Below are positions 1,295 to 60,444 of a DNA stretch of 64,000 nt, in pieces. The notes below the pieces were generated by a model that was given only the letters and a program-made list of their open reading frames with translations, had not been told where the DNA came from and searched no databases. This DNA is from Gammaproteobacteria bacterium. Its GTDB lineage: Bacteria; Pseudomonadota; Gammaproteobacteria; Ga0077536. The first letter of the stretch is position 1; each line of letters begins with the position of its first letter. Location of the stretch: the NCBI GenBank assembly GCA_963662545.2, contig CAXXLL010000002.1, forward strand, positions 1,664,001 to 1,728,000. Direction: 5' to 3'. A program made the translations under genes and the position numbers.

Positions 1295-2893
1295 ATGAGT
1301 TCGACCCAGTCCCTGGCGCCACGCGACGGCGTCATCGAGCGCCTCGCCGATATCGTGGGCGCAGACCACTGCCTGACTTCGGAGAAAGACCGACGCTTCT
1401 TCTCGACGGATCTCAGTTACATTCCGGACGAGGTCGCCGAAGTCGTCGTGCAGCCCGACAACGCAGAACAACTCGCCGCGTGTGTTCGCTGCGCGACGGA
1501 TGCCGGCATGGCGGTGGTAGCACGCGGCGGCGGTATGTCCTATACGCGCGGTTACCAGCCGGAGCGCGCGGATTCAATGCTTATTGACCTGCGCCGTTTG
1601 AACCGCATTCTCGACATCAATACCGAAGACATGTATGTCGCCGTCGAGACGGGTTGTACGTGGATGCAACTGTACGAGGCCTTGAGTGAGCGGGGCGTCC
1701 GAACGCCCTATTTCGGTCCCCTGTCGGGGATGTACGCCACGGTTGGTGGCGCGCTGTCGCAGAACAGCCTGTTTTTAGGCTCTGGCGTTTACAACACGGT
1801 GGCCGAAAGCGTCATCGGGCTCAAGGTGGTGCTCGCCGACGGCAGCCTGCTGCAGACGGGCTCGGCGGCGCACATCAACGGCCAGCCGTTCTGGCGTCAT
1901 TTCGGACCTGATCTGACCGGTATTTTTACGGCCGACACCGGCGCTTTCGGCGTCAAGGCCGAAGCCACCCTGCGATTGATCGAGGCGCCCGAAGTCACGC
2001 TATTCATGTCCTACGCCTTCGACACCATCGAGGCGATGATCGCAACGCAGACGGTGCTGGCCCGCAAACGGATCTGCGCGGAATGCTACGGTTTCGATCC
2101 GTACTACAACGCGGCCTTCGAAAAGCAGGGCTTCACTTTCGGCGAGGGACTGGCGGTGCTGCGGGACGTCGCCATAAGCGAAGGCGGCATCAAGGGTCTG
2201 TGGACGTCCTTCAAGGTCGCCACCGCGGGAAAGACGTTCCTCAGCAAGGTGAATTACTCGTTGCACATGACGTTTGACAGCTACGACAAGGATGTTGCAC
2301 ACACGGCGCTGGAGCTCGCACGCGGAATTTGTCTCGAACAAGGCGGCCGTGAAATCGACAACACGCTGCCGACTGTGTTCAGAGCCCAACCGTTCGGCGG
2401 CGTGCGCACGGTGCTGCTCGGTTCCGAAGGCGAGATCTGGCTGCCGGTGCACGGGTTCATGCCCTTGTCTAAAGCCGTGGAAGTGGGTAATGCGACGGAA
2501 TCTTTTTTCGCCGAGCATCGCGAAACGATGGAAAAATACAATATTCACAGTTCCTACTTGACCTGTTTCGCCGGTACAGAGTTTGTGATCGAACCCAGCA
2601 TTTACTGGCACGACGAGCTCGGTGATTTCCGCTTGAGTCTGATCGAAGACGAGTTTGCCGAAAAGTGGAAAGACATTCCCGCGGACGAGGAAAAGCGCAA
2701 GATTGCACTCAAACTCCGCGACGACCTGCGCGATCTCTACGATCGGCACGGCTGCTGTCATCTGCAGTTGGGCAAGTACTATCCCTACCAGGAGATGATG
2801 AATAACGAAGCACTCCGCAAGCTGCTTAACGGCGTCAAGGATTTGCTCGATCCGGCGCGCCAGATAAATCCGGGGTCGTTGGGATTGCGCTGA
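1295..2893 (+). CDS. FAD-binding oxidoreductase (VAO/PCMH, GlcD-like)
   Basis: ARGGGMSY, ATVGGALS, FGPDLTG.F, C-terminal LLDP..QINPG; RBS AGGAGG upstream. Confidence 0.85.
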   Translation: MSSTQSLAPRDGVIERLADIVGADHCLTSEKDRRFFSTDLSYIPDEVAEVVVQPDNAEQLAACVRCATDAGMAVVARGGGMSYTRGYQPERADSMLIDLRRLNRILDINTEDMYVAVETGCTWMQLYEALSERGVRTPYFGPLSGMYATVGGALSQNSLFLGSGVYNTVAESVIGLKVVLADGSLLQTGSAAHINGQPFWRHFGPDLTGIFTADTGAFGVKAEATLRLIEAPEVTLFMSYAFDTIEAMIATQTVLARKRICAECYGFDPYYNAAFEKQGFTFGEGLAVLRDVAISEGGIKGLWTSFKVATAGKTFLSKVNYSLHMTFDSYDKDVAHTALELARGICLEQGGREIDNTLPTVFRAQPFGGVRTVLLGSEGEIWLPVHGFMPLSKAVEVGNATESFFAEHRETMEKYNIHSSYLTCFAGTEFVIEPSIYWHDELGDFRLSLIEDEFAEKWKDIPADEEKRKIALKLRDDLRDLYDRHGCCHLQLGKYYPYQEMMNNEALRKLLNGVKDLLDPARQINPGSLGLR

Positions 2894-51129: not shown

Positions 51130-52516
51130 GAGTTATTGTCAAAAGTGGTGTTCAGGCGGTTGAATCAAGCGGCGACCTGATTGACCCTTGTCACCTCGAT
51201 ACCATCTTCAAATTTAACTCCAGTAATCACCTTGGCCAGATAGTCGAATCCACGTAGGCGTCGCCAATTCTTCTGCGCACACCGCCCCAGCTTGAACATC
51301 ATATGGAGCATGCCGTCCCGAGAGAGACAGCCCTTGGAGCGCCGGGTCCGGTGCCGGATCGTAGCGAAGGTGGATTCAATCGGATTGCTCGTGCGAATGC
51401 TTTGCCAATGCGGTGCCGGAAAATCATAGAACACCAGCAACTCCTCACGGTCTTTCTGTAGGCACAGGGTCGCCTTGGGATACTTCGGTTCATAGGTCTT
51501 GAGGAACAGCTCGAACGCCTTCTCGGCGTCGGCCTTTGTCGCGGCCTGCCAGATCGCGTGCAGGGCTTGCCTGGCTTTGGCCTGTGCCGACTTCGGTAGG
51601 CAGTTCAGCACCGTTCATCGTCTTGTGCATCCAGCAGCGTTGCTGGCGGGTCTCACCGTAGACTTCCTCCAGTGCGGCCCAGAAGCCCATGGCACCGTCC
51701 TCGATCGCCAGCTTGGGAATATTCATCCCGCGTGACTTCAATTTCAGCAACACCTCGCGCCAGCTCTGCGTGGACTCCCGCACACCATCCTCCATCGCCA
51801 AAAAACGCTTCTCACCTCGCGCATTTACGCCGATCACCACCAACGCACACAGCTTCGTGTGCTCCGCCCGCAGGCCACTGTAGACACCGTCCGCCCACAC
51901 ATACACCCAGCGGTCTTGGTCCAATCGCCCCTCGCACCAGTCGCGGTATTCTTGCGCCCACACCTGCTTCAAGCGCGACACTGTGCTCGCCGACAGGCCC
52001 TTCGCCTGCGGCCCCAACAAAACTTCCAGCGCAGCGCCCATTTCGCCACTGGAAACGCCCTTCAAATACAGCCACGGCACGGCCGCCTCCAAGGTTCTTG
52101 TCTTGCGCACATACGGCGGCACCAGCGCTGAACGGAAGGTCACCGGCTCGCCGAGCTTCGAACGAACCTTCGGTATCCTCACCGTCACCGGCCCCAAGCC
52201 CGTCTGCAACTGTCGCTCCGGCAAATAGCCGTTCCGAACGACACCCGCTTTGTCGTCCGCCGTGCGATGGCTTGAATACTGCGCCAAATACTCTGCCAGC
52301 TCGCTTTCAACTGCTCGCTCAATCAGCGCCCGTGCACCGTTTCTCAAAACCTCCGTCAACGGATCTGAAATTCCTCCTCGACCTGATATTTCAACAACGT
52401 TACTCTCTCTCATGGTGGCGTATCCTCTTTGGTTGGCTTGCTGCTTGGTAACAACATTTCAACCAGATACGCCGCCTTTCTTCAACTATCTCAAACACCA
52501 GATTCCGTTATAACTC
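51130..52516 (-). mobile_element. IS256 family element, transposase frameshifted near 51610
   Basis: IRs GAGTTATTGTCAAAAGTGGTGTT and AACACCAGATTCCGTTATAACTC; WADG, DGAMGF, QQRCWMH, IRTSNPIES. Confidence 0.9.
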
Positions 52517-52974
52517 TGTCGATCACGAAGGGGAGGTGCTCGAAGTTTTTGCCACGAAACAGCGGGGTCGCAAGGCTGCACTGAGGTTTCTGAAACGCGC
52601 AATGAAGCGCTACGGCCGGCCAAAGGTGAGCGTGACGGACCGGCTCAAATCATACCGGGCTGCGATGAATGTGATCGGCAATGCCGCCGCTCAGACTTGC
52701 GGTCAGTGGCTCAACAATCGAGCAGAAAACTCACACCAGCCGTTCCGGCGACGGGAAGGGGCAATGGCCAGGTTCAGGGGCATCAAGACCCTGCAGAAAT
52801 TTGCTGCTGCCCACGCCTCGATCCACAATCATTTCAATCAGGAACGTCATCTTTATAACCGCGAAACCTTCAAACTCAATCGCTCCGCCGCTTTGGCCGA
52901 GTGGCGTCGACTTGTAGCCTGAGAGACCTCGATTGTTGGCTCTACTGCTCCGAGCAAGTTAGTCTGACAATGCC
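52517..52974 (+). mobile_element. IS6 family right half
   Basis: VTDRLKSY, WLNNRAENSHQPFRRRE; IRR AGTCTGACAATGCC. Confidence 0.88.
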
Positions 52975-53343
52975 ATTGGGTGTGATGGACGAGGGGATGG
53001 TCGTGCCGGATCGTGACCAGACGACACGGCCACGGCGAAGGTGGAAATGGCTCCGGCAGCCGCGCGTCCGCCAGACGGAAGGGTGCAACGAGACGGAGCC
53101 GCTGAAGTGCCGGGTGGCGCGCCAGCTCGGGGAATCGTCGGGGACGAGGCTGAGCTGGATGGTGGCGCCGCAGCCGCAGGGGCAGAGCATGGCGGCGGAC
53201 CACGGCCGCGGCCCGTCGCCGACCAGATAGAGCCGGCGAGGTTCGAGCAGATCGGGCACGTCCTCGACGGGTTCGGTCGCGAAATTCGGCCGGAGCCCCG
53301 AACGCTCTACCAGCCGCCACCACAGGTTCGCGAGAGCGGTCAA
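52942..53343 (-). CDS. DUF6527-like protein (Bub-associated); last codons supplied by IS6
   Basis: CPCGCG, SLHPSVW, GCRSHF..R.G.V.W; start overlaps upstream stop. Confidence 0.8.
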   Translation of the reverse strand: MTALANLWWRLVERSGLRPNFATEPVEDVPDLLEPRRLYLVGDGPRPWSAAMLCPCGCGATIQLSLVPDDSPSWRATRHFSGSVSLHPSVWRTRGCRSHFHLRRGRVVWSRSGTTIPSSITPNGIVRLTCSEQ

Positions 53344-54737
53344 GCGGCCTCCCTGGCAACGCTGAGTTCGGCCCAGTCGAGCAGTGGCGAGATGTCGCCC
53401 CGGCCGACGTACCGGGCTAGTACCGGGCAGGGGTCGCCGTCGCCTTCGTGTTCGTAGATGCCGTGGCTGAGGCTGAGTCGATGGACGGCGTACTCGGCGT
53501 TGGGATCCAAGCGGTACGGGTGCAAGCGGGCGAGAAACTCATTGACGGCGAGGCTCGCGAGCAGGACGTTGAGCTGCACCACGGCGGGCCGGTCCTCGTC
53601 GACGCCGCGGATGTAGCCGTCGTCGAGCAGGGCTCGGTAGGCGGCCGGATCGGTGCGGTAGAGCCCCGCTGCGCGCACCTGGTCCATGGTGTAGACGTGC
53701 CTGCTCAGCAGACTCGAGCCGCCGGGCTGGAGGTAGTGCACGGTACCGCACACCTGGTCGACGCCGCCGTGGCCGTCGGCCTCGAGCTTCACGCCGAGAT
53801 CGAAGTAAGGAATCAGGTAGAAGGTCGCCAGCTTGTTGAGGAGGTGGCGGCCGTCGATCGAGTCCATGCAGCCGAAGACGACGTCGCAGGTCGCGACGGC
53901 GCGCACGATGTCGGCGTCGAAAAGGCTTCGGGGATGGGTGTCGACCCGGGTGCCGAGTCCCATGGCCCGGATCGCACGGGCGGCGACGTCGACCTTGAGC
54001 CGTCCTTGCCGCGCATCCTCCATGGTGGCGTTGAGGATGCGGTTGAGGTTCTTCTCCTCGACGCGGTCCGGATCGACGAGCACCAGTTCGCCCACGCAGT
54101 TGCGGGCGAGCTGCTCGATCAACGGGCTCCCGGTTCCGGAACAGCCGACAACGGCGATGCGCAGGCGACGGAGACGGTCGTAGGTGCCGGCACCGAAGGT
54201 CTGGGCGATGCGGCGGCCGAACTCAGGTATGCTGGTCGTCGGCGATGCGGCGGGCCACAATGCCAGGTCGTCGCCGACGACGTTGACCGCGTGGAGCGGG
54301 TGGAAGCGGCCACGCTCGTCGACGAGTCTGCCGATCATGCGGCCGTCTTCGAACATGAGCGCGCTGCCGTGCGGCCCGGCGTCCGTCCAGGCGTGGACGG
54401 AGGGAAAGAGCTCGCGGTCGGCGCGGTCATCGATGCGGGAGAAAGGCGACGGGAGACGGTGGCCGTGCACCTTGACGACGGCGAGGCCGTGCCGGTCGGC
54501 CTGGGCGAGCACCGGTGGCAGCACCTTCGTCGGCCAGGTGACGCGTGTAGGCGTGCGCACGGAGCAGACGTGGTGAGGCACGGGGACGAGTTCGCGGACC
54601 AGCAGACGGTGTCGCTGGGCGGCTCGCCGGTGGCCGCACAATGCGAAGGCGACGGCCTCGCAGCCGTCGCCGGGGAACAGGTGGCGCTGCAGATCGGCGT
54701 GCTGGGGGCCGGTGAGCGTCAGGGTGGCGGTGCTCAC
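53340..54737 (-). CDS. JAB-peptidase/ThiF (E1-like) fusion, BubCD-type
   Basis: N-terminal DGCEAVAF and HGH-x6-S-x2-D; C-terminal VVGCSGTGS, DPDRVEEKNLNR, CMDSIDGR; GTG start at 54737. Confidence 0.85.
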   Translation of the reverse strand: MSTATLTLTGPQHADLQRHLFPGDGCEAVAFALCGHRRAAQRHRLLVRELVPVPHHVCSVRTPTRVTWPTKVLPPVLAQADRHGLAVVKVHGHRLPSPFSRIDDRADRELFPSVHAWTDAGPHGSALMFEDGRMIGRLVDERGRFHPLHAVNVVGDDLALWPAASPTTSIPEFGRRIAQTFGAGTYDRLRRLRIAVVGCSGTGSPLIEQLARNCVGELVLVDPDRVEEKNLNRILNATMEDARQGRLKVDVAARAIRAMGLGTRVDTHPRSLFDADIVRAVATCDVVFGCMDSIDGRHLLNKLATFYLIPYFDLGVKLEADGHGGVDQVCGTVHYLQPGGSSLLSRHVYTMDQVRAAGLYRTDPAAYRALLDDGYIRGVDEDRPAVVQLNVLLASLAVNEFLARLHPYRLDPNAEYAVHRLSLSHGIYEHEGDGDPCPVLARYVGRGDISPLLDWAELSVAREAA

Positions 54738-54742
54738 GGATG

Positions 54743-55426
54743 TCAGGCCCTGCCGACTTCGCGGGCGAACCAGTGCTCGACCAGGCCGAAGTGGGTGGCG
54801 AGATTGTCGACGCCGGGACGCCACGGGTTCTCGCCGGTGCGGTGGCGGCTCCAGCGCTGCCACTGCCAGCCGTCGAAAGCGTCGTTCGAGATGGCGGCGA
54901 TGGGCCTTCCGTCGGCGCGCGCGAGTCCCGGGTGGACGTAGACCATGTCGATCTGTGTGTCCGGGTAGCCGGACTCGATACGGACGTTCACGTCGGCTTG
55001 ATGGCACTGGTAGCCGGGCGGGATGGGAAAGTCGTATAGGACGACCCGCAGGACGCCGCCTTCGGCAACGAGCTCGAACCGGTGCGGCGAGCCCTCGAGC
55101 CACTCGAGGTCCTCCTCGGGTAGGACGAACTCCCGGCGTCCGCCGAAGCCCTCGGTCTGGTCGAGCGGCAGGGTCACGAAGCGCTCGACGCCGGGCTTGC
55201 TGAGGTCGATCTTCTCGTCGAGATCGAGCCGGTCCGGATGCCCGCCCTTCACCTTGAGATAGATGCCGAAGCGCTCGGCCGGCTTCTTGCCGGCGAGTTC
55301 GAGGAGCTCGCGCCCGGTCATGAGCGGGACGGGAGCCTCGAAGAAGTCCTTGTCGATCTGGACTTTGAAGTGCTGGTCGGGAACGGCGATGGTGTCGCCG
55401 GGCTTGTCGTTGCGATCCTTGGTCAT
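54743..55426 (-). CDS. Ubiquitin-like (multiubiquitin) domain fused to a prokaryotic E2 family E domain, BubAB-type
   Basis: TGRELLELAG...IDL..PGVERF...DQTEG, then LPEED, P.PPGY, GYPDTQIDM, WQRWSRH, WRPGVD. Confidence 0.85.
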   Translation of the reverse strand: MTKDRNDKPGDTIAVPDQHFKVQIDKDFFEAPVPLMTGRELLELAGKKPAERFGIYLKVKGGHPDRLDLDEKIDLSKPGVERFVTLPLDQTEGFGGRREFVLPEEDLEWLEGSPHRFELVAEGGVLRVVLYDFPIPPGYQCHQADVNVRIESGYPDTQIDMVYVHPGLARADGRPIAAISNDAFDGWQWQRWSRHRTGENPWRPGVDNLATHFGLVEHWFAREVGRA

Positions 55427-55581
55427 GGGTCGGTTCCTTCGGTTGTTGGCTGCGGTCCTACCCCCTTATGCTGGCGAGAGCGGGCGTCGCGGACACGGGG
55501 GCACTTTTTTTTCGTGGCGATGTCCGCAGACAGGCGTTTGGTGCGCATTGGAGGAGTAGGAACGGACCGCAAGCAGTCGCA

Positions 55582-56160
55582 ATGGGGCTAGTGCAACGGA
55601 AAATGGCGACGCCGAAAGAGTGCGCTGCAGCGCTGCGGAAGCTCAGCGATAAGGATTTAGGGCGACTGGACAAGGCGGCGCAGCTACGCGCGACAGGGTT
55701 GGCGAACGTGGAAGGACGCGACCTACGGAACGAGGCGATCGCGCGGATGCTGGAAGGGCGGCGGCAGTGGCCGCAGGGCGTGGCGCTGGACGTTTTCCTG
55801 CTGGAGACGATGCGAAGCATCGCTAGTGATTATCGGCGGCGGCAGAAATCGGCGCGGGTGGTCGCGGAGTCCGAGGTCCGGGCGGATTCGGAGACCGGCG
55901 ACGGCGCGATAGCAACGGCGGGGGACGTGTCGATGGCGCCGGAAGCCCGGACAGCCGCGGCGGAAACGCTAGCGCGGATCGACTCGCTGTTCAGTGAAGA
56001 CGCCGACGCGCAGGCGGTCATCGCCGGCAAGGCAAAAGGCATGTCACCGGCCGAAATTCAGAAGGAGCACGCGATGGACGAGACAAGATACGCGACGACC
56101 CTGCGCCGGATCCGGCGCGGCGTGGCTGGCTTGTCCACAGAAGGAGGGGAGCAAGCATGA
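55582..56160 (+). CDS. ECF-type sigma-factor-like protein
   Basis: Region-2-like DL..EAI.R.LEG.R.W...FL...MRSIAS; region-4-like GMSPAEI...Y.T..RRIRR. Confidence 0.65.
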   Translation: MGLVQRKMATPKECAAALRKLSDKDLGRLDKAAQLRATGLANVEGRDLRNEAIARMLEGRRQWPQGVALDVFLLETMRSIASDYRRRQKSARVVAESEVRADSETGDGAIATAGDVSMAPEARTAAAETLARIDSLFSEDADAQAVIAGKAKGMSPAEIQKEHAMDETRYATTLRRIRRGVAGLSTEGGEQA

Positions 56161-56543
56161 GCGAAAAGCGGAACGCGCTCGAGCGTCTCGAGGCGCTGTT
56201 GAGGGGTCTCGAAGACGAGGTGATGCGCAGTGAAGGGTGCGTCGGCACGGACGTGGCGGCGATGAGGGCAGAGATCGAGGCGCTGATCGAGAAGCATGTC
56301 GGCGCCACGGGGTCGGCGGAAGCTCCGGTGTCTCGGACGGGAGACGCCAAGGGCAAGGTGAGCGGCGTCGTAGAACTGCTCGGCCGGTGGGCCGGGATGG
56401 GCCAGAGCGGAGTGCGGGGGGCGCTGGCGCCGAGGGTGAGGATGGCGTTCTCCGGAACGAAGCCGAAGCAGGACGATCGGGGGAGGGGGCACCCGAGGGG
56501 CGTCGGCGATGGCGGGGACCGCCAGGGGGAAAAGGAGGACTAG
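56157..56543 (+). CDS. Hypothetical protein translationally coupled to the sigma-like gene
   Basis: ATGA overlap; RBS GGAG. Confidence 0.6.
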   Translation: MSEKRNALERLEALLRGLEDEVMRSEGCVGTDVAAMRAEIEALIEKHVGATGSAEAPVSRTGDAKGKVSGVVELLGRWAGMGQSGVRGALAPRVRMAFSGTKPKQDDRGRGHPRGVGDGGDRQGEKED

Positions 56544-56616
56544 CGCGAGTCGACGGGCGCGGTGGTGCGAGCGTGGTCGTTAACGGGATGCGGCAGGTGG
56601 ACGCGGTGGAGCAGCA

Positions 56617-57981
56617 ATGACGTCGGAAGTGGTGGTCATGAATCGGCTGGGCGTAGCGCTGGCCGCCGACAGCGCCGTCACGGTCGACATGGGTCAAAGC
56701 TCGAAGGTGCGGGACTCGGCGCTGAAGGTCTTCATGCTCTCGAAGTACCGGCCCGTGGGCGTGATGGTGTACAACAACGCGTCGCTCCTAGGGGTGCCCC
56801 TGGAGACGGCGATCAAGGTGTTCAGGCAGGTGCTGGGACGGAACGGCTACCCGAAGCTCCACGAGTATGGGGACGCGTTCGTCGAGTACCTGAACTCGAA
56901 CCGCTCGTTGTTCCCGCAGGCGGTCCAGGACAGGTACTTCGTCGCCGCGTTGGAGGTCGAATACGAACGCATAGCGGAGTTCGTGGAGAAGGCGCTCGCG
57001 AGCGGGGTCTACGGTCCGGAGGACGAAGAAAGTCAAGAGACGGCGGTCGAAACGGCGGACCGGATCATCGCTGAACGGCTGGCGTTCTGGGAGAGCCAGA
57101 GCGACGCGGATTACTTTGACGCGGATTACTTTGAGGTGAGCGCAGAGGACGTCGTCGGGCGGAACTCCGGCAACGTGCTCGACGTGATCAATCGGAAGTT
57201 CCTCGGCTGGACCGCCGTGAGCGACGAGGCGCGACAGCACCTGTACGAGATTGCGAAGTACCTCGTGTGTAAGGACCACTTCCCGCCGGATGTTTTGACC
57301 GGTCTCGTGATCGCCGGATTCGGCGGGGAGGAGCACTTCCCGGTGGTTCAGCACTTGGAGTTTGGCGGGATATACGACAACCGGCTCAAGGTGCGGCCGG
57401 CGACTTTGCACGAGGTTTCCGACGACGTACCGTCCGAGGTATTGGCGTTCGCGTACCAGGACATGGTGGACGGGTTTCTCGACGGGATTTCTCCGGATGT
57501 GTTCGAACATCTGGGGGACGCTGCCGCCTTCATCCGGGAGATGCCCGTGGTGGCCCTGGACGCGGTGGAAGGGATTGCGCCGGAAGCTAAGGAAAAAGCA
57601 GCGGAGATCATCCGGCAGGAGAGCGTGAGGAAGGCGGGAGACTTCGCACGCGGCGTTCTTCGCGGTGCGGAGGAGAGACGCGGGCAGATCGAGCAGGCAG
57701 TGGAGGCCTTGTCGCTGAAGGAGCTGGCGCAAGTCGCGTCGACCTTGGTGGGTCTGAGTTCGTTCGAGCATCAGATGTCCCTGGATCGGGAGACGGTCGG
57801 TGGACCTGTGGACGTGGCCGTTATCTCGAAAGGAGACGGATTCATCTGGATGGACCGCAAGCACTATTTTCGGCGGGAGCTGAATAGCCATTTTTTTCGG
57901 AGATATTTCGATGGTGCGGCGCCCGAGAGTGACGATGATCCAGTGGGGGACGACGAGGAGGAGATGTCGGATGGCGAATGA
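56617..57981 (+). CDS. Proteasome-beta/Ntn-hydrolase-like protein with large insertions
   Basis: (M)TSEVVVMNRLGVALAADS...KVF gives Thr1, Asp17, Lys36; C-terminal ETVGGPVDVAVISK.DG. Confidence 0.7.
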   Translation: MTSEVVVMNRLGVALAADSAVTVDMGQSSKVRDSALKVFMLSKYRPVGVMVYNNASLLGVPLETAIKVFRQVLGRNGYPKLHEYGDAFVEYLNSNRSLFPQAVQDRYFVAALEVEYERIAEFVEKALASGVYGPEDEESQETAVETADRIIAERLAFWESQSDADYFDADYFEVSAEDVVGRNSGNVLDVINRKFLGWTAVSDEARQHLYEIAKYLVCKDHFPPDVLTGLVIAGFGGEEHFPVVQHLEFGGIYDNRLKVRPATLHEVSDDVPSEVLAFAYQDMVDGFLDGISPDVFEHLGDAAAFIREMPVVALDAVEGIAPEAKEKAAEIIRQESVRKAGDFARGVLRGAEERRGQIEQAVEALSLKELAQVASTLVGLSSFEHQMSLDRETVGGPVDVAVISKGDGFIWMDRKHYFRRELNSHFFRRYFDGAAPESDDDPVGDDEEEMSDGE

Positions 57982-58249
57982 GCGGGACAGAAATAGGCCG
58001 GTGCGGGGGAAACCGGATCGGCCAGGTGGCGAGGGACAGGCGATGGCGTTCGAGAAGCTGGTTCGCAGGGCTCCGCAGTTCCGAGGCTTGGCCAAGGTAG
58101 CTCAAGGCGACGAAGAAAAGCTTACCGCATCACAGAAGAAGTTCCTGAACGAGTTCACCGTGGGTCTGGCCAAAGGCGTGGGGGAGAGCGAATCCCAGCA
58201 GGATGCCACGACTGAAGTGGGAACCGGGAAGCGAACCCAGGGACGCTAG
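57971..58249 (+). CDS. Small hypothetical protein overlapping the end of the Ntn gene
   Basis: ATG 57971 with GGAGGAG upstream. Confidence 0.45.
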   Translation: MANERDRNRPVRGKPDRPGGEGQAMAFEKLVRRAPQFRGLAKVAQGDEEKLTASQKKFLNEFTVGLAKGVGESESQQDATTEVGTGKRTQGR

Positions 58250-58818: not shown

Positions 58819-59623
58819 GGCATAGTTAGAGTAAATCGTCTTGAGCCACCCATTGAGGTCTTCTAGCCTGTAGGAATGCAAAATCGCTTCCGCTATTTCA
58901 ACAGTGCGCCCGAGGTCATTCGCCTCGCGGTGATGTTGTACATCCGCTATCCGCTTTCGTTGCGCCAAGTTGAAGACATTCTGTTCGAACGGGGCATCGA
59001 CATCTGCCACGAGGCGGTGCGGTACTGGTGGAACCGCTTTGGTCCCCTGTTTGCAGCTGAGATCCGGAAACGCCGCGTTCATCATGGATCCTATTCGAAC
59101 TGGCGCTGGCATCTTGATGAGGTGTTTGTCCGGGTTAACGGCGAGATACATTATCTATGGCGCGCTGTCGATCATGAAGGAGAGGTACTCGAGGCTTTTG
59201 CCACGAAACAGCGGGATCGCAGAGCGGCACTGAGGTTTCTGAAACGCGCAATGAAGCGCTACGGCCGGCCAAAGGTGATCGTGACGGACCGGCTCAAATC
59301 ATACCGGGCTGCGATGAATGTGATCGGCAATACCGTCGCTCAGACTTGCGGTCGGTGGCTCAACAATAGAGCAGAAAACTCACATCAGCCCTTTCGGCGA
59401 CAAGAAGGGGCAATGGCCAGGTTCAGGGACATCAAGACCCTGCAGAAATTTGTTGCCGCCCACGCCTCGGTCCACAGTCATCCCAATCAGGAACGTCATC
59501 TTTACAGTCGCGAGGACTTCAAACTCGATCGTTCCGCCGCTTTGGCCGAGTGGCGTCGACTTGCAGCCTGAGAGACCTCAATTGTTGGCTCTACTGCTCC
59601 GATCAACTCAGTCTGACAACGCC
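58819..59623 (+). mobile_element. IS6 family element, complete
   Basis: IRL GGCATAGTTAGAGT and IRR AGTCTGACAACGCC. Confidence 0.9.
58876..59571 (+). CDS. IS6 family transposase
   Basis: YPLSLRQVE, WHLDEVF, YLWRAVD, VTD, LNNRAENSH. Confidence 0.92.
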   Translation: MQNRFRYFNSAPEVIRLAVMLYIRYPLSLRQVEDILFERGIDICHEAVRYWWNRFGPLFAAEIRKRRVHHGSYSNWRWHLDEVFVRVNGEIHYLWRAVDHEGEVLEAFATKQRDRRAALRFLKRAMKRYGRPKVIVTDRLKSYRAAMNVIGNTVAQTCGRWLNNRAENSHQPFRRQEGAMARFRDIKTLQKFVAAHASVHSHPNQERHLYSREDFKLDRSAALAEWRRLAA

Positions 59624-59816
59624 CGTGGCAGATGTCGATGCCACGTTCGAACAGAATGTCTTCAACTTGGCGCAACGAAAGCGGATAGCGGATGTACAAC
59701 ATCACCACGAGGCGAATGACCTCGGGAGAACTGTTGAAATAACGGCAGGGATTTCGCATCGCTTGAGGCTACGGAACTCCCCTTCCCGGCTCAAGCCGAT
59801 TTACTCTGACAAAGCC
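59624..59816 (-). mobile_element. IS6 left-end fragment in opposite orientation
   Basis: IRL GGCTTTGTCAGAGT on the minus strand; MRNPCRYFNSSPEVIRL...DICH. Confidence 0.85.
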
Positions 59817-59877: not shown

Positions 59878-60354
59878 ATGGCGGAGGACCCTCAGTTCGG
59901 CATCGGAGACGCGACGTTTCAAGCCGCGGGCGGTGAAGCAGGCATTTGTGCCCTGGTCGATACGTTCTACGACATCATGTCATCCGATCTCCAGTATCGA
60001 ACGATCCGTTCTTGGCATCCCGATGATAACCGCGTTTCCCGAGACAAATTAGCGCGTTTCTTGTGTGGTTGGATGGGTGGGCCACGTCGTTACACTGAGA
60101 AGTATGGCCCGATCAGTATCCCTCGCGTTCACGCACATCTGGACGTCACCGAAAAGGAGCGCGATGACTGGCTCGGCTGCATGGCGAAGGCGCTCGCAAA
60201 ACAGGCGTATTCACCGAGCCTCATTGCCTATCTGTTGGAGCAGTTAGCCGTACCGGCGGAAGCCGTAAGGGGGCTTTGGTCCGTTGTTTGGCGCCGAGAT
60301 CCGGACACGCCGCATTCATCATGGATCCTATTCGAACTGGCGCTGGCACCTTGA
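59878..60354 (+). CDS. Group II truncated hemoglobin; C-terminus replaced by IS6-derived sequence
   Basis: GGEAGI..LVD.FY, KLARFLCGWMGGP..Y, H.HL, ERD.WL.CM; IS6 internal fragment at about 60274-60372. Confidence 0.8.
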   Translation: MAEDPQFGIGDATFQAAGGEAGICALVDTFYDIMSSDLQYRTIRSWHPDDNRVSRDKLARFLCGWMGGPRRYTEKYGPISIPRVHAHLDVTEKERDDWLGCMAKALAKQAYSPSLIAYLLEQLAVPAEAVRGLWSVVWRRDPDTPHSSWILFELALAP

Positions 60355-60444
60355 TGAGGTGTTCGTACGGGTCTGTAAATAGGCATCGAAAACTGACCCA
60401 CTATCGGCGTCGAATATTGACCCACCCAGAAATGGTTTTTTGCA

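Follow-up and report, generated by a model that had tools for sequence, protein, structure and literature searches.

A predicted proteasome-fold protease gene conserved beside a sigma-like gene and a Type I Bub operon in one clade of bacterial ubiquitination-like loci

What might a protein with the predicted fold of a proteasome beta subunit do beside a bacterial ubiquitin-like conjugation operon? The question is raised by a 64,000-nucleotide stretch of DNA (hereafter the window) of a gammaproteobacterial assembly (GCA_963662545.2, contig CAXXLL010000002.1, positions 1,664,001 to 1,728,000). Here, a three-gene bacterial ubiquitination-like (Bub) operon stands back to back with a second operon, which encodes a sigma-like protein, a small protein (p128), a protein of the N-terminal nucleophile (Ntn) type and another small protein (p92). 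A first-pass annotation of the letters had proposed a tag-and-cleave system, in which the Ntn protein would degrade, deconjugate or receive ubiquitin-like (Ubl) tags under the control of a dedicated sigma factor. In the present study, we found that the seven genes recur together throughout one clade of Type I Bub loci, and we consider it very probable that the two operons are one co-regulated functional unit. For the protease, we tentatively favour, at somewhat less than even confidence, a regulatory role in which it would remove p128, free the sigma factor and thereby turn Bub on, by analogy with the proteases found beside other Bub operons.

The cassette and its distribution

All seven open reading frames (ORFs) described by the first-pass annotation were found (Table 1). 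The ORF list places the start of the sigma gene at 55468; alignment with 25 homologues pointed instead to the ATG at 55582, which makes the divergent gap 155 bp, and with this start the position predicted for the plus-strand run is borne out. The p128 gene and the sigma stop overlap by 4 nt.

The linkage of the Ntn gene to Bub was analysed by tblastn, with the proteins of the window, in the best 80 of the 531 places that match the Ntn protein in a one-genome-per-species collection (genome loci). BubAB, BubCD and BubE were present in 25 of these loci and the sigma gene in 26, in constant order and orientation. p128 and p92, which are short and fast-evolving and hence undercounted by tblastn, were detected in 11 and 10 loci, respectively, and the reading of ORFs shows more: the p128 gene sits between the sigma and Ntn genes in all the Bub-linked loci read, and the complete sigma-p128-Ntn-p92 operon lies beside Bub in 25 of the 26 sigma-bearing loci, the remaining one (L027) being placed at a contig end. 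Among the 29 closest genome loci, 25 carry Bub, two (L021 and L026) have room for Bub, sigma and p128 but lack all three, and two (L017 and L027) are truncated where the contig stops.

The relationships of the Ntn proteins were inferred from a quick maximum-likelihood tree (IQ-TREE, 88 rows), from which five of the 80 genome loci were omitted (Ntn ORF shorter than 380 amino acids, aa) and to which 12 of the 80 viral loci described below were added. The Bub-linked proteins are found on one side of a branch with a support of 100 in the Shimodaira-Hasegawa-like approximate likelihood ratio test (SH-aLRT); the 26 rows on this side comprise 23 Bub-linked proteins together with those of L021, L026 and L027. 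The nested position of L021 and L026 is read by us as the result of a loss of Bub, sigma and p128. In both of these loci the Ntn gene and a small ORF have been kept (L021, 8140-9933), and upstream of them L021 encodes a MazG plus MazG_C protein and a protein of the uracil-DNA glycosylase superfamily. The clade extends over alpha-, beta- and gammaproteobacterial genomes, with Ntn identity down to 40%. Cultured strains of Mesorhizobium, Novosphingobium and Rubrivivax are among the carriers. The full cassette is also present on a plasmid of Mesorhizobium, where the sigma, p128 and Ntn proteins are named 'hypothetical protein' in RefSeq.

A reverse scan was performed with a BubCD profile on metagenome contigs (best 80 of 383 relatives, a sample that leans towards the clade of the window). 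Where at least 3200 nt were available upstream of Bub, the Ntn gene was present in 26 of the 42 loci and the sigma gene in 28. In 14 of the 16 Ntn-free loci the BubCD protein was less than 60% identical to that of the window. Prok-E2_E scored above its cut-off in five of 401 sampled genomes of the phylum, including the genome of the window, and no Ntn homologue was found in the other four, which are too few to give a rate. This distribution, together with the Ntn-free Bub loci, indicates that the module marks one clade of Type I Bub and not all Bub operons. Homologues of the Ntn protein do, then, co-occur with Bub elsewhere, within a single clade, and the pairing is not due to chance.

Both operons are preceded by the same bipartite motif, TGTCCG-N18-GCAT, which has only two matches in the window, both within the 155-bp gap (0.18 expected by chance). 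Of the 25 Bub-linked genome loci, 17 carry both copies, five one copy and three none. The intergenic DNA of these loci (6,177 bp) contains 39 matches, while the rest of the same loci (481,747 bp) and 55 other loci (771,872 bp; 1,253,619 bp together) contain none. Of 37 metagenome loci, 21 had both copies, 10 had a single copy and six had neither. The sequence of the 18-nt spacer changes from locus to locus, and the two copies lie at variable distances from each other (225 nt in L012), which fits two promoters rather than one operator. A single operator for a dimeric factor was considered and rejected, since this distance varies widely. As judged from the sequence, the two halves of the motif may be the -35 and -10 elements of a promoter that serves both operons, the simplest candidate reader being the cassette sigma protein, and to this extent the dedicated sigma control proposed in the first-pass annotation fits the divergent promoter arrangement. 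In the whole genome, the 10 specified bases of the motif match 21 places, compared with 10 for a control pattern; thus, the motif alone defines no regulon.

Proteins of the cassette and their surroundings

The minus-strand operon (52942-55426) was correctly recognised as Bub in the first-pass annotation, as matches to the Pfam families Multi_ubiq, Prok-E2_E, ThiF and DUF6527 confirm. By its sequence it belongs to Type I Bub (BubAB, BubCD and BubE), the kind formerly named 6E.1/DUF6527, and is intact (Ye, Gong, Chambers and Corbett, bioRxiv 2024, PMC11601596). In the single 227-aa ORF of BubAB, Multi_ubiq was matched by residues 20-86 (E 3.7e-13) and Prok-E2_E by residues 102-222 (E 9.9e-35). 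The E2 domain carries the pattern S193-R-H195, which is not of the catalytic-cysteine type and which we equate, by pattern and not by alignment, with S333 and H335, the catalytic S-x-H residues of the E2 described by Ye et al. (PMC11601596).

The text of Ye et al. (PMC11601596) states that a fusion of Ubl and E2 is encoded by every Type I Bub operon, whereas in five or six of the 25 genome loci related to that of the window (L013, L019, L020, L022, L028 and L029) Ubl and E2 are separate ORFs. The Ubl ORF stops directly after the residues TEG in L019, L022 and L029, and in L013 and L028 the E2 ORF starts directly after the same point. Since, in addition, the sequence ...LPLDQTEG is invariant in 23 of 23 aligned copies, the mature Ubl of the window probably ends at G93. 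This residue lies three positions before a GG that might otherwise be chosen as the terminus.

BubCD is 61-87% identical over its full length to 21 aligned homologues and, apart from the ThiF match, was recognised by generic E1-E2 models of PADLOC (up to E 7.9e-14). Its JAB domain gave no match in Pfam and was seen only as residues E27, H91-x-H93, S100 and D103, which are invariant across 22 copies of the N-terminal half. The numbers of E27 and D103 are next to those of E28 and D104, the residues mutated in the Citrobacter protein of this type by Ye et al. (PMC11601596). BubE contains C54-x-C56-x-C58 and S89-x6-C96-x2-H99, with the same spacing as the residues C57/C59/C61 and S92/C99/H102, which make up the C4 zinc site and the Ser-His dyad of the BubE serine protease described in the same preprint (PMC11601596). 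According to these authors, the biological role of Bub and its conjugation targets are unknown, and protection against phages was not found (PMC11601596). In PADLOC, no model matched the other six proteins of the cassette.

The Ntn protein gave no Pfam match at E values up to 0.1. This includes the Proteasome family (PF00227), whose model does find the HslV and Anbu-like genes of the same genome; the protein can thus be regarded as related to this Pfam family by fold without belonging to it, as is also the case for the new groups of proteasome homologues of Fuchs et al. (PMC8665760). A phmmer search against the sequences of the Protein Data Bank (PDB) returned nothing, and hhalign of the Ntn alignment against the single HslV and Anbu-like sequences of the same genome gave probabilities below 1%, so the assignment of the fold rests on the predicted structure. 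In the AlphaFold 2 (AF2) model (predicted local distance difference test, pLDDT, 77.7), residues 2..419 were aligned by VIA-align with residues 1..194 of a 20S beta subunit (6e5b_H; Z 14.5, root-mean-square deviation, rmsd, 3.5, 181 residues of a core of about 200), followed by Anbu (Z 13.2), HslV (11.4), BPH (10.5) and connectase (8.3). All of the top rows in Foldseek were 20S beta or Anbu proteins (best E 1.1e-3). Two helical blocks are inserted in the core, one at about 101-218, after the first helix pair, and one at 293-388, before the last strands.

Model residue 2 was aligned on chain residue 1, and in 187 of the 188 homologues compared, which were taken from genomes, viral contigs and metagenomes, threonine is found at this position directly after the start codon (serine in the remaining one; the start codon always precedes position 2). 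D18 and K37 are present in all 188, and their correspondence to Asp17 and Lys33 of proteasome subunits was taken from the strand register rather than from a superposition of residues. The proteasome-beta fold proposed for the 454-aa protein in the first-pass annotation is therefore supported both by the structural match and by the conserved Thr, Asp and Lys. Of the Thr1-Asp17-Lys33 set named there, the Thr (mature residue 1) and the Asp (mature residue 17) stand, and the invariant Lys is mature residue 36 (K37 of the ORF) rather than 33. With a beta-subunit fold in the model and the catalytic residues kept in 187-188 of 188 homologues, the Ntn protein is probably an active protease. Prediction of a complex between its residues 1-432 and the mature Ubl (residues 1-93) gave a score of 0.00 in a run that lacked controls, which speaks neither for nor against binding. 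The Bub-linked copies have an additional disordered acidic C-terminal tail of about 20 residues (57900-57981 in the window), which often ends in D-G-E, D-G-Q or D-G-G; the matches from the distant clade end near residue 431.

The family of the Ntn protein is large (at least 2,782 proteins at E <= 1e-3 among 8,000 candidates scored) and corresponds to phrog_5990 (E 2.1e-88), whose function is unannotated. Judging by architecture, family size and distribution, and not by sequence clustering, it is probably PMI-4 of Fuchs et al., where PMI stands for 'proteasome homolog with multiple insertions' (Fuchs, Alva and Lupas, Bioinformatics 2021, PMC8665760). As described in section 3.3 of that paper, PMI-3 and PMI-4 have insertions after H1/H2 and between H3/H4; insertions at these sites are predicted to hinder ring and double-ring assembly, and PMI-4 is a large group present in bacteria, Euryarchaeota and phages (PMC8665760). 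The genome of the window has, in addition, an ordinary HslV gene with a gene for an HslU-like ATPase next to it, and a gene for an Anbu-like protein of 251 aa, so the gene of the cassette is the third proteasome-fold gene there.

The sigma-like protein had no match in Pfam (Sigma70_r2/r4) and reached 20.9 bits with TIGR02937, against a cut-off of 42.9. Its AF2 model (pLDDT 82.7) consists of two helical domains joined by a disordered linker. The top matches in Foldseek were sigma factors of the extracytoplasmic function (ECF) group (SigH, SigL, BldN, RpoE, AlgU and SigW; best E 4.2e-3), which occupy rows 1-8, 11-14 and 16. VIA-align gave Z 9.4 for region 4 (rmsd 2.1, 74 residues), Z 7.4 for region 2 (rmsd 2.8, 82 residues) and Z 8.1 against full-length SigL, middling values that support the assignment at the level of fold. 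Neighbours in the ESM Atlas carry the automatic name sigma-70 family, and a profile of 26 homologues found only SigH among the PDB sequences (E 0.66). The sigma-like label given by the first-pass annotation can hence be sharpened to that of a predicted ECF-like sigma protein, at fold level only and not as a proven sigma factor. In p128, two motifs are conserved across 17 aligned copies, a helix motif at the N-terminus and ..RMAFSG at the C-terminus. The protein had no match in Pfam, no usable match in the ESM Atlas and only chance-level matches of its profile in the PDB (best E 0.15). p92 was likewise without a match in Pfam. We propose p128 as a candidate anti-sigma factor and as the candidate substrate of the protease.

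Table 1. Features of the cassette and its flanks (window positions), with two further proteasome-fold genes of the same genome (positions in loci L171 and L172).
Feature	Position	Strand	Remarks
bubE, DUF6527 protein, 133 aa	52942..53343	-	Pfam DUF6527, E 8.7e-22
bubCD, putative JAB peptidase-E1 adenylyltransferase fusion, 465 aa	53340..54737	-	Pfam ThiF, E 4.5e-30
bubAB, one-domain Ubl + Prok-E2_E fusion, 227 aa	54743..55426	-	Pfam Multi_ubiq and Prok-E2_E
Ubl part of bubAB, residues 1-93	55148-55426	-	Prok-E2_E part at about 54743-55123
TGTCCG-N18-GCAT, promoter-like bipartite motif facing bubAB	55468..55495	-	41 nt from motif end to bubAB start codon
TGTCCG-N18-GCAT, second copy, facing the sigma operon	55521..55548	+	33 nt from motif end to sigma start codon
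ECF-like sigma, 192 aa	55582..56160	+	Fold-level matches; below Pfam and NCBIfam thresholds
p128, small conserved protein of no known family, 128 aa	56157..56543	+	Translationally coupled to the sigma gene
Ntn protein, predicted proteasome-beta fold, two helical insertions, 454 aa	56617..57981	+	phrog_5990; AF2 model
p92, small protein, 92 aa	57971..58249	+	Internal ATG of listed ORF 57911-58249; overlap with the Ntn gene end
Fragment of an IS6-family transposase, adjoining bubE (left cassette flank)	52516..52922	+	DDE_Tnp_IS240, E 1.5e-21
IS6-family element and inverted IS6 fragment (right cassette flank)	58864..59771		Transposase 58876-59571, DDE_Tnp_IS240, E 4.6e-42
IS256/Mutator-family transposase in two overlapping ORFs (307 aa, 148 aa)	51165-52413		Split probably by frameshift
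Globin ORF, bacterial-like	59878-60354		Bac_globin, E 2.2e-24
Further proteasome-fold gene, genome G000, contig C3 (L171)	1483-2022	-	
Further proteasome-fold gene, genome G000, contig C3 (L172)	1492-2247	+	

The copy of the cassette in the window is surrounded by insertion sequences (IS) of the IS6, IS256, IS5-like and IS21 types, and the statement of the first-pass annotation that most of its neighbours are broken was confirmed (IS6 fragment, split transposase, and IS6 copies and fragments; Table 1). All seven genes are bracketed by directly oriented IS6 sequences, of which the left one is a fragment and the right one is accompanied by an extra inverted fragment (inverted arms at 58864-59011 and 59624-59771). 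The direct repeat (52516-52815 and 59165-59464) is 93% identical over 300 nt, and the seven genes may have travelled as one unit bounded by IS6. The globin ORF lies stranded between IS6 fragments and the IS21 element, and its 3' end enters a 100-nt IS6 repeat (60273-60372).

The role of the protease

Outside the Bub-linked clade, the Ntn gene is found in a different setting. None of the 51 distant genome loci (31-37% Ntn identity), which come from many bacterial phyla and from archaea, contains Bub, sigma or p128, and nearly all of them have an ORF of 50-100 aa that starts at or over the Ntn stop codon. Bub genes were likewise absent from all of the 80 viral loci (best 80 of 106 IMG/VR relatives), most of which carry the small downstream ORF. 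Nearly every locus, genomic or viral, thus has an ORF of 50-100 aa in the position of p92. Between the Bub-linked and the distant loci, these small ORFs have only position and size in common, with an hhalign probability of 3% for their homology. BLAST clustering of 1,043 neighbour ORFs revealed no shared partner of the distant Ntn genes beyond this ORF, and in a Pfam analysis of 133 neighbour ORFs the commonest family was CO_dh, found in five ORFs from related Methanosarcinales. We conclude that the protease and the small downstream ORF form a unit that is older than the link to Bub.

Around the viral Ntn genes, repressors, CII-like activators and anti-repressors are frequent, as are genes of early recombination: among 126 neighbour ORFs of 21 viral loci we identified the phrog_4 repressor (9 ORFs), the phrog_8 regulator (9), CII-like proteins (7), the phrog_2328 repressor (7), Ant (3) and CI-like proteins (3). 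Homologues are carried by cultured phages of Stenotrophomonas, Providencia and Porphyromonas, and by streptococcal satellite phages. In the satellite phages listed (Javan series) the Ntn homologue lies near one end of the record. In Stenotrophomonas phage vB_SmeS_BUCT708 (L254, 4001-5251), a lone Ntn gene is located on the opposite strand between the holin/lysozyme and tail genes.

The divergent position upstream of Bub is occupied by regulatory genes in other operons as well. The published counts for 544 Bub operons are 43 with CapW, 168 with CapH+CapP and 59 with CapK+CapS (PMC11601596, PMC13373217). CapH+CapP, a helix-turn-helix (HTH) repressor with an M78 metalloprotease of the ImmA/IrrE type, regulates operons of Bub, Bil and the cyclic-oligonucleotide-based anti-phage signalling systems (CBASS), as does CapK+CapS, and in both two-gene sets the texts describe a transcription factor coupled with an enzyme that inactivates the inhibitor or the factor upon a stress signal (PMC11601596, PMC13373217). 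The Ntn-free metagenome Bub loci analysed here carried, at this position, either Sigma70_r2/r4 proteins or HTH proteins with Peptidase_M78. Sigma70_r2 was matched by seven of the 41 ORFs tallied, and L217, L224 and L235 were tested singly for Sigma70_r2/r4. A sigma-70 family protein is encoded divergently from bubAB in L217, L221, L224, L226, L227, L235 and L246, followed in L217, L224, L227, L235 and L246 by a protein of 197-241 aa of no known family; in L222 a member of the same partner family (186 aa) follows a 223-aa protein without a Pfam match. These partners (186-241 aa) share conserved motifs among themselves, and together with the sigma-70 proteins they look like a further sigma-based class of Bub regulators, which we did not find described in the literature searched.

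Two metagenome loci combine the features of both arrangements. L251 (7302-9246) encodes a member of the sigma family of the window, a p128 homologue (hhalign probability 95%, E 3.4e-8) and, in the place of the Ntn protein, a 256-aa Peptidase_M78. L229 (539-2316) has the same layout, with Peptidase_M78 in the Ntn place and both copies of the promoter motif, and a weak p128-like match (probability 37%). From their gene order, an M78 protease of the ImmA/IrrE type substitutes in place for the proteasome-fold protease in these two loci. In L241 and L250 the M78 domain is fused to an HTH domain; in the window itself, neither an HTH repressor nor Peptidase_M78 was detected with Pfam. Relatives of the ImmA/IrrE/CapP-type proteases cleave transcription regulators.

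The tag-and-cleave proposal, with the Ntn protein degrading or deconjugating Ubl tags or accepting them, is not supported by these results. The Ntn gene and its small ORF occur without Bub, other Bub operons have regulator pairs at the same position, and M78 takes the place of the Ntn protein in two loci, all of which points to a regulatory protease instead. We favour this role because of the position of the gene, its displacement by M78 and the habit of the Ntn family to reside in prophage immunity regions. In the mechanism that we propose, the cassette sigma protein would read both TGTCCG-N18-GCAT promoters and so drive its own operon and the Bub operon, and p128 would keep it inactive as an anti-sigma factor. 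The Thr1 protease, in response to a signal, would remove p128, with p92 possibly modulating its activity, and the freed sigma protein would switch on Ubl conjugation. The Ntn protease would then have, towards p128, the part that the CapP metalloprotease plays towards CapH in other operons of Bub and CBASS.

Several observations weigh against this mechanism. The wide occurrence of the Ntn gene and small ORF where sigma, p128 and Bub are lacking (0/80 viral and 0/51 distant genome loci) implies that the basic activity of the protease cannot be the cleavage of p128, and L021 and L026 retain the two genes after losing the other five. The lone opposite-strand gene of the Stenotrophomonas phage looks more like a self-contained accessory than a regulator. 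Other Bub loci manage with a sigma protein and a single partner, so Ntn and p92 could be cargo outside the switch, or an effector induced along with it. No anti-sigma domain was recognised in p128 (Pfam, PDB and ESM Atlas searches), the sigma assignment depends on fold matches of middling strength (none in Pfam, 20.9 of 42.9 bits in NCBIfam), and the exact motif is absent from three of the 25 genome loci and six of the 37 metagenome loci.

The alternatives concern mainly the part played by Ntn and p92. It is unlikely, in our judgement, that the two are a co-induced working partner of Bub, which cleaves tagged proteins, processes or deconjugates the Ubl or receives it, with sigma and p128 alone serving as the regulator. 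This would agree with the stable linkage to Bub, of single origin and kept across deep divergence (25 of 26 sigma-bearing genome loci, the last one cut by a contig end), with the single promoter motif common to both operons, and with the acidic tail, which is extra in the Bub-linked proteins when compared with distant matches ending near residue 431. Sister Bub loci also need only sigma and one partner, which leaves Ntn and p92 as additional cargo, and the text of Ye et al. gives the conjugation targets as unknown (PMC11601596). However, Bub already possesses two peptidases (JAB and BubE), the cassette is devoid of an unfoldase ATPase, insertions of the PMI-3/4 type are predicted to hinder ring assembly (PMC8665760), the Ntn family functions without a Ubl system across most of its range, a regulatory-type M78 protease can replace it, and the four Bub genomes drawn regardless of Ntn had no homologue (0/4). 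That the Ntn protein is a true biochemical partner of the Ubl pathway, forming a minimal bacterial pair of Ubl and proteasome-type enzyme without an unfoldase, we regard as quite improbable; a linkage of single origin that is long kept and a common regulon are nevertheless what would be expected of it. In the boldest version, the Thr1 hydroxyl of Ntn would take the Ubl from the serine oxyester of the E2 and hand it on to targets, so that Ntn would be an E3-like transpeptidase comparable to connectase; in another version, Ntn would cleave Ubl-marked proteins. Bub chemistry proceeds entirely via oxyesters, and Thr1 enzymes form acyl intermediates of this kind.

It is rather unlikely, too, that Ntn and p92 are an autonomous accessory module of prophage origin (e.g. 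an abortive-infection or toxin-antitoxin-like protease with a small inhibitor), captured once into the Bub cassette and its regulon and co-induced with no biochemical contact. The two-gene unit stands alone in 80 of 80 viral loci, occurs in cultured phages and streptococcal satellite phages and in archaea and many bacterial phyla with no common neighbour (top Pfam family in 5 of 133 ORFs), and occupies a moron-like position in one phage; the IS6 sequences that bracket the cassette of the window are also in line with capture. Against capture without contact stand the order sigma-p128-Ntn-p92, with its overlapping or closely spaced genes, which has been kept for long, the single loss observed (L021/L026), as independent modules should part more often, and the presence of M78 at the same position, which suggests that the position has a defined role. 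We give next to no credence to the idea that the adjacency is a product of chance in an IS-rich island, without functional meaning: although the copy of the window lies amid IS6, IS256, IS5-like and IS21 elements, it is refuted by the recurrence of the seven-gene layout in different lineages (25 genome loci, at least 26 metagenome loci), by the tree and by the confinement of the motif to the intergenic region.

Comparison with known systems

The Bub operon and the protease family have both been described before. The conserved linkage between them, the ECF-like sigma gene with p128, the shared motif, the small ORF and the displacement by M78 appear to be new: no description of them was found in the literature searched, which included the text of two Bub preprints and of the CapK/CapS paper, and the supplementary tables listing 544 Bub operons may record such neighbours. 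With respect to the role of Bub, the cassette offers a handle in its putative dedicated sigma protein, the two copies of the motif and a protease that should, once activated, reveal the inducing signal. If the regulatory role is correct, the cassette represents a fourth, sigma-based class of Bub/CBASS regulators, and proteases of unrelated folds have been recruited to the same position. If Ntn is instead a partner of Bub, then bacteria couple Ubl tagging with a proteasome-fold enzyme, which bears on the origin of the ubiquitin-proteasome system. For the orphan protease family, the Bub-linked clade provides a first functional context and hence a testable case.

The locus shares with the published Type I Bub operons the BubAB fusion, the E1 part of BubCD with a putative JAB part, BubE with its characteristic residue spacing, the Ser-x-His E2 and a regulator-type gene set placed divergently upstream. 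It differs in the content of this set, which consists of an ECF-like sigma, p128, the Ntn protease and p92 instead of CapW, CapH+CapP or CapK+CapS. The resemblance to the two latter pairs concerns the divergent position and the proposed logic of a factor coupled with an enzyme; in contrast to them, the window would use a sigma and a putative anti-sigma rather than a repressor, and a threonine Ntn rather than a zinc enzyme, and it can be said to work like the CapH+CapP family at most by analogy. ECF sigma factors can be released from their anti-sigma partners by regulated proteolysis. The sigma operon of the window, seemingly autoregulated, with a co-translated small partner and a proposed release by a protease, is similar in this respect, but in p128 neither an anti-sigma domain nor a membrane segment can be recognised, and the protease is encoded in the operon itself and is of the proteasome fold.

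As in the ubiquitin- and Pup-proteasome systems, a tag and its activating and conjugating enzymes adjoin a proteasome-fold Thr protease; in contrast to these systems, the cassette lacks an AAA+ unfoldase and the insertions of the protease are predicted to hinder the formation of rings. A Pup-like system was rejected, since no member of the Pup ligase/deamidase family (PafA/Dop, PF03136) was found in the genome of the window (96.85% complete), while the control, Corynebacterium glutamicum, gave matches. Connectase, a proteasome homologue described as a monomer with protein ligase activity, likewise has a proteasome fold, does not need rings and uses its N-terminal Thr on a specific protein substrate, but its structural match to the Ntn protein is distant (Z 8.3) and its S3-S4 signature insertion was not seen in our model.

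In architecture, the Ntn protein is like the PMI proteins of Fuchs et al.: it has the proteasome-like core, the Thr1, Asp and Lys residues, no propeptide and insertions at both sites, and its family is similarly large, with members in many bacterial phyla, Euryarchaeota and phages. For the 22 new proteasome homologues, the text of that paper reports no genomic context or co-occurrence that suggests a function (PMC8665760). The family described here differs in that one of its clades has the fixed context of Bub, sigma and p128, and in that nearly all of its members are accompanied by a small downstream ORF.

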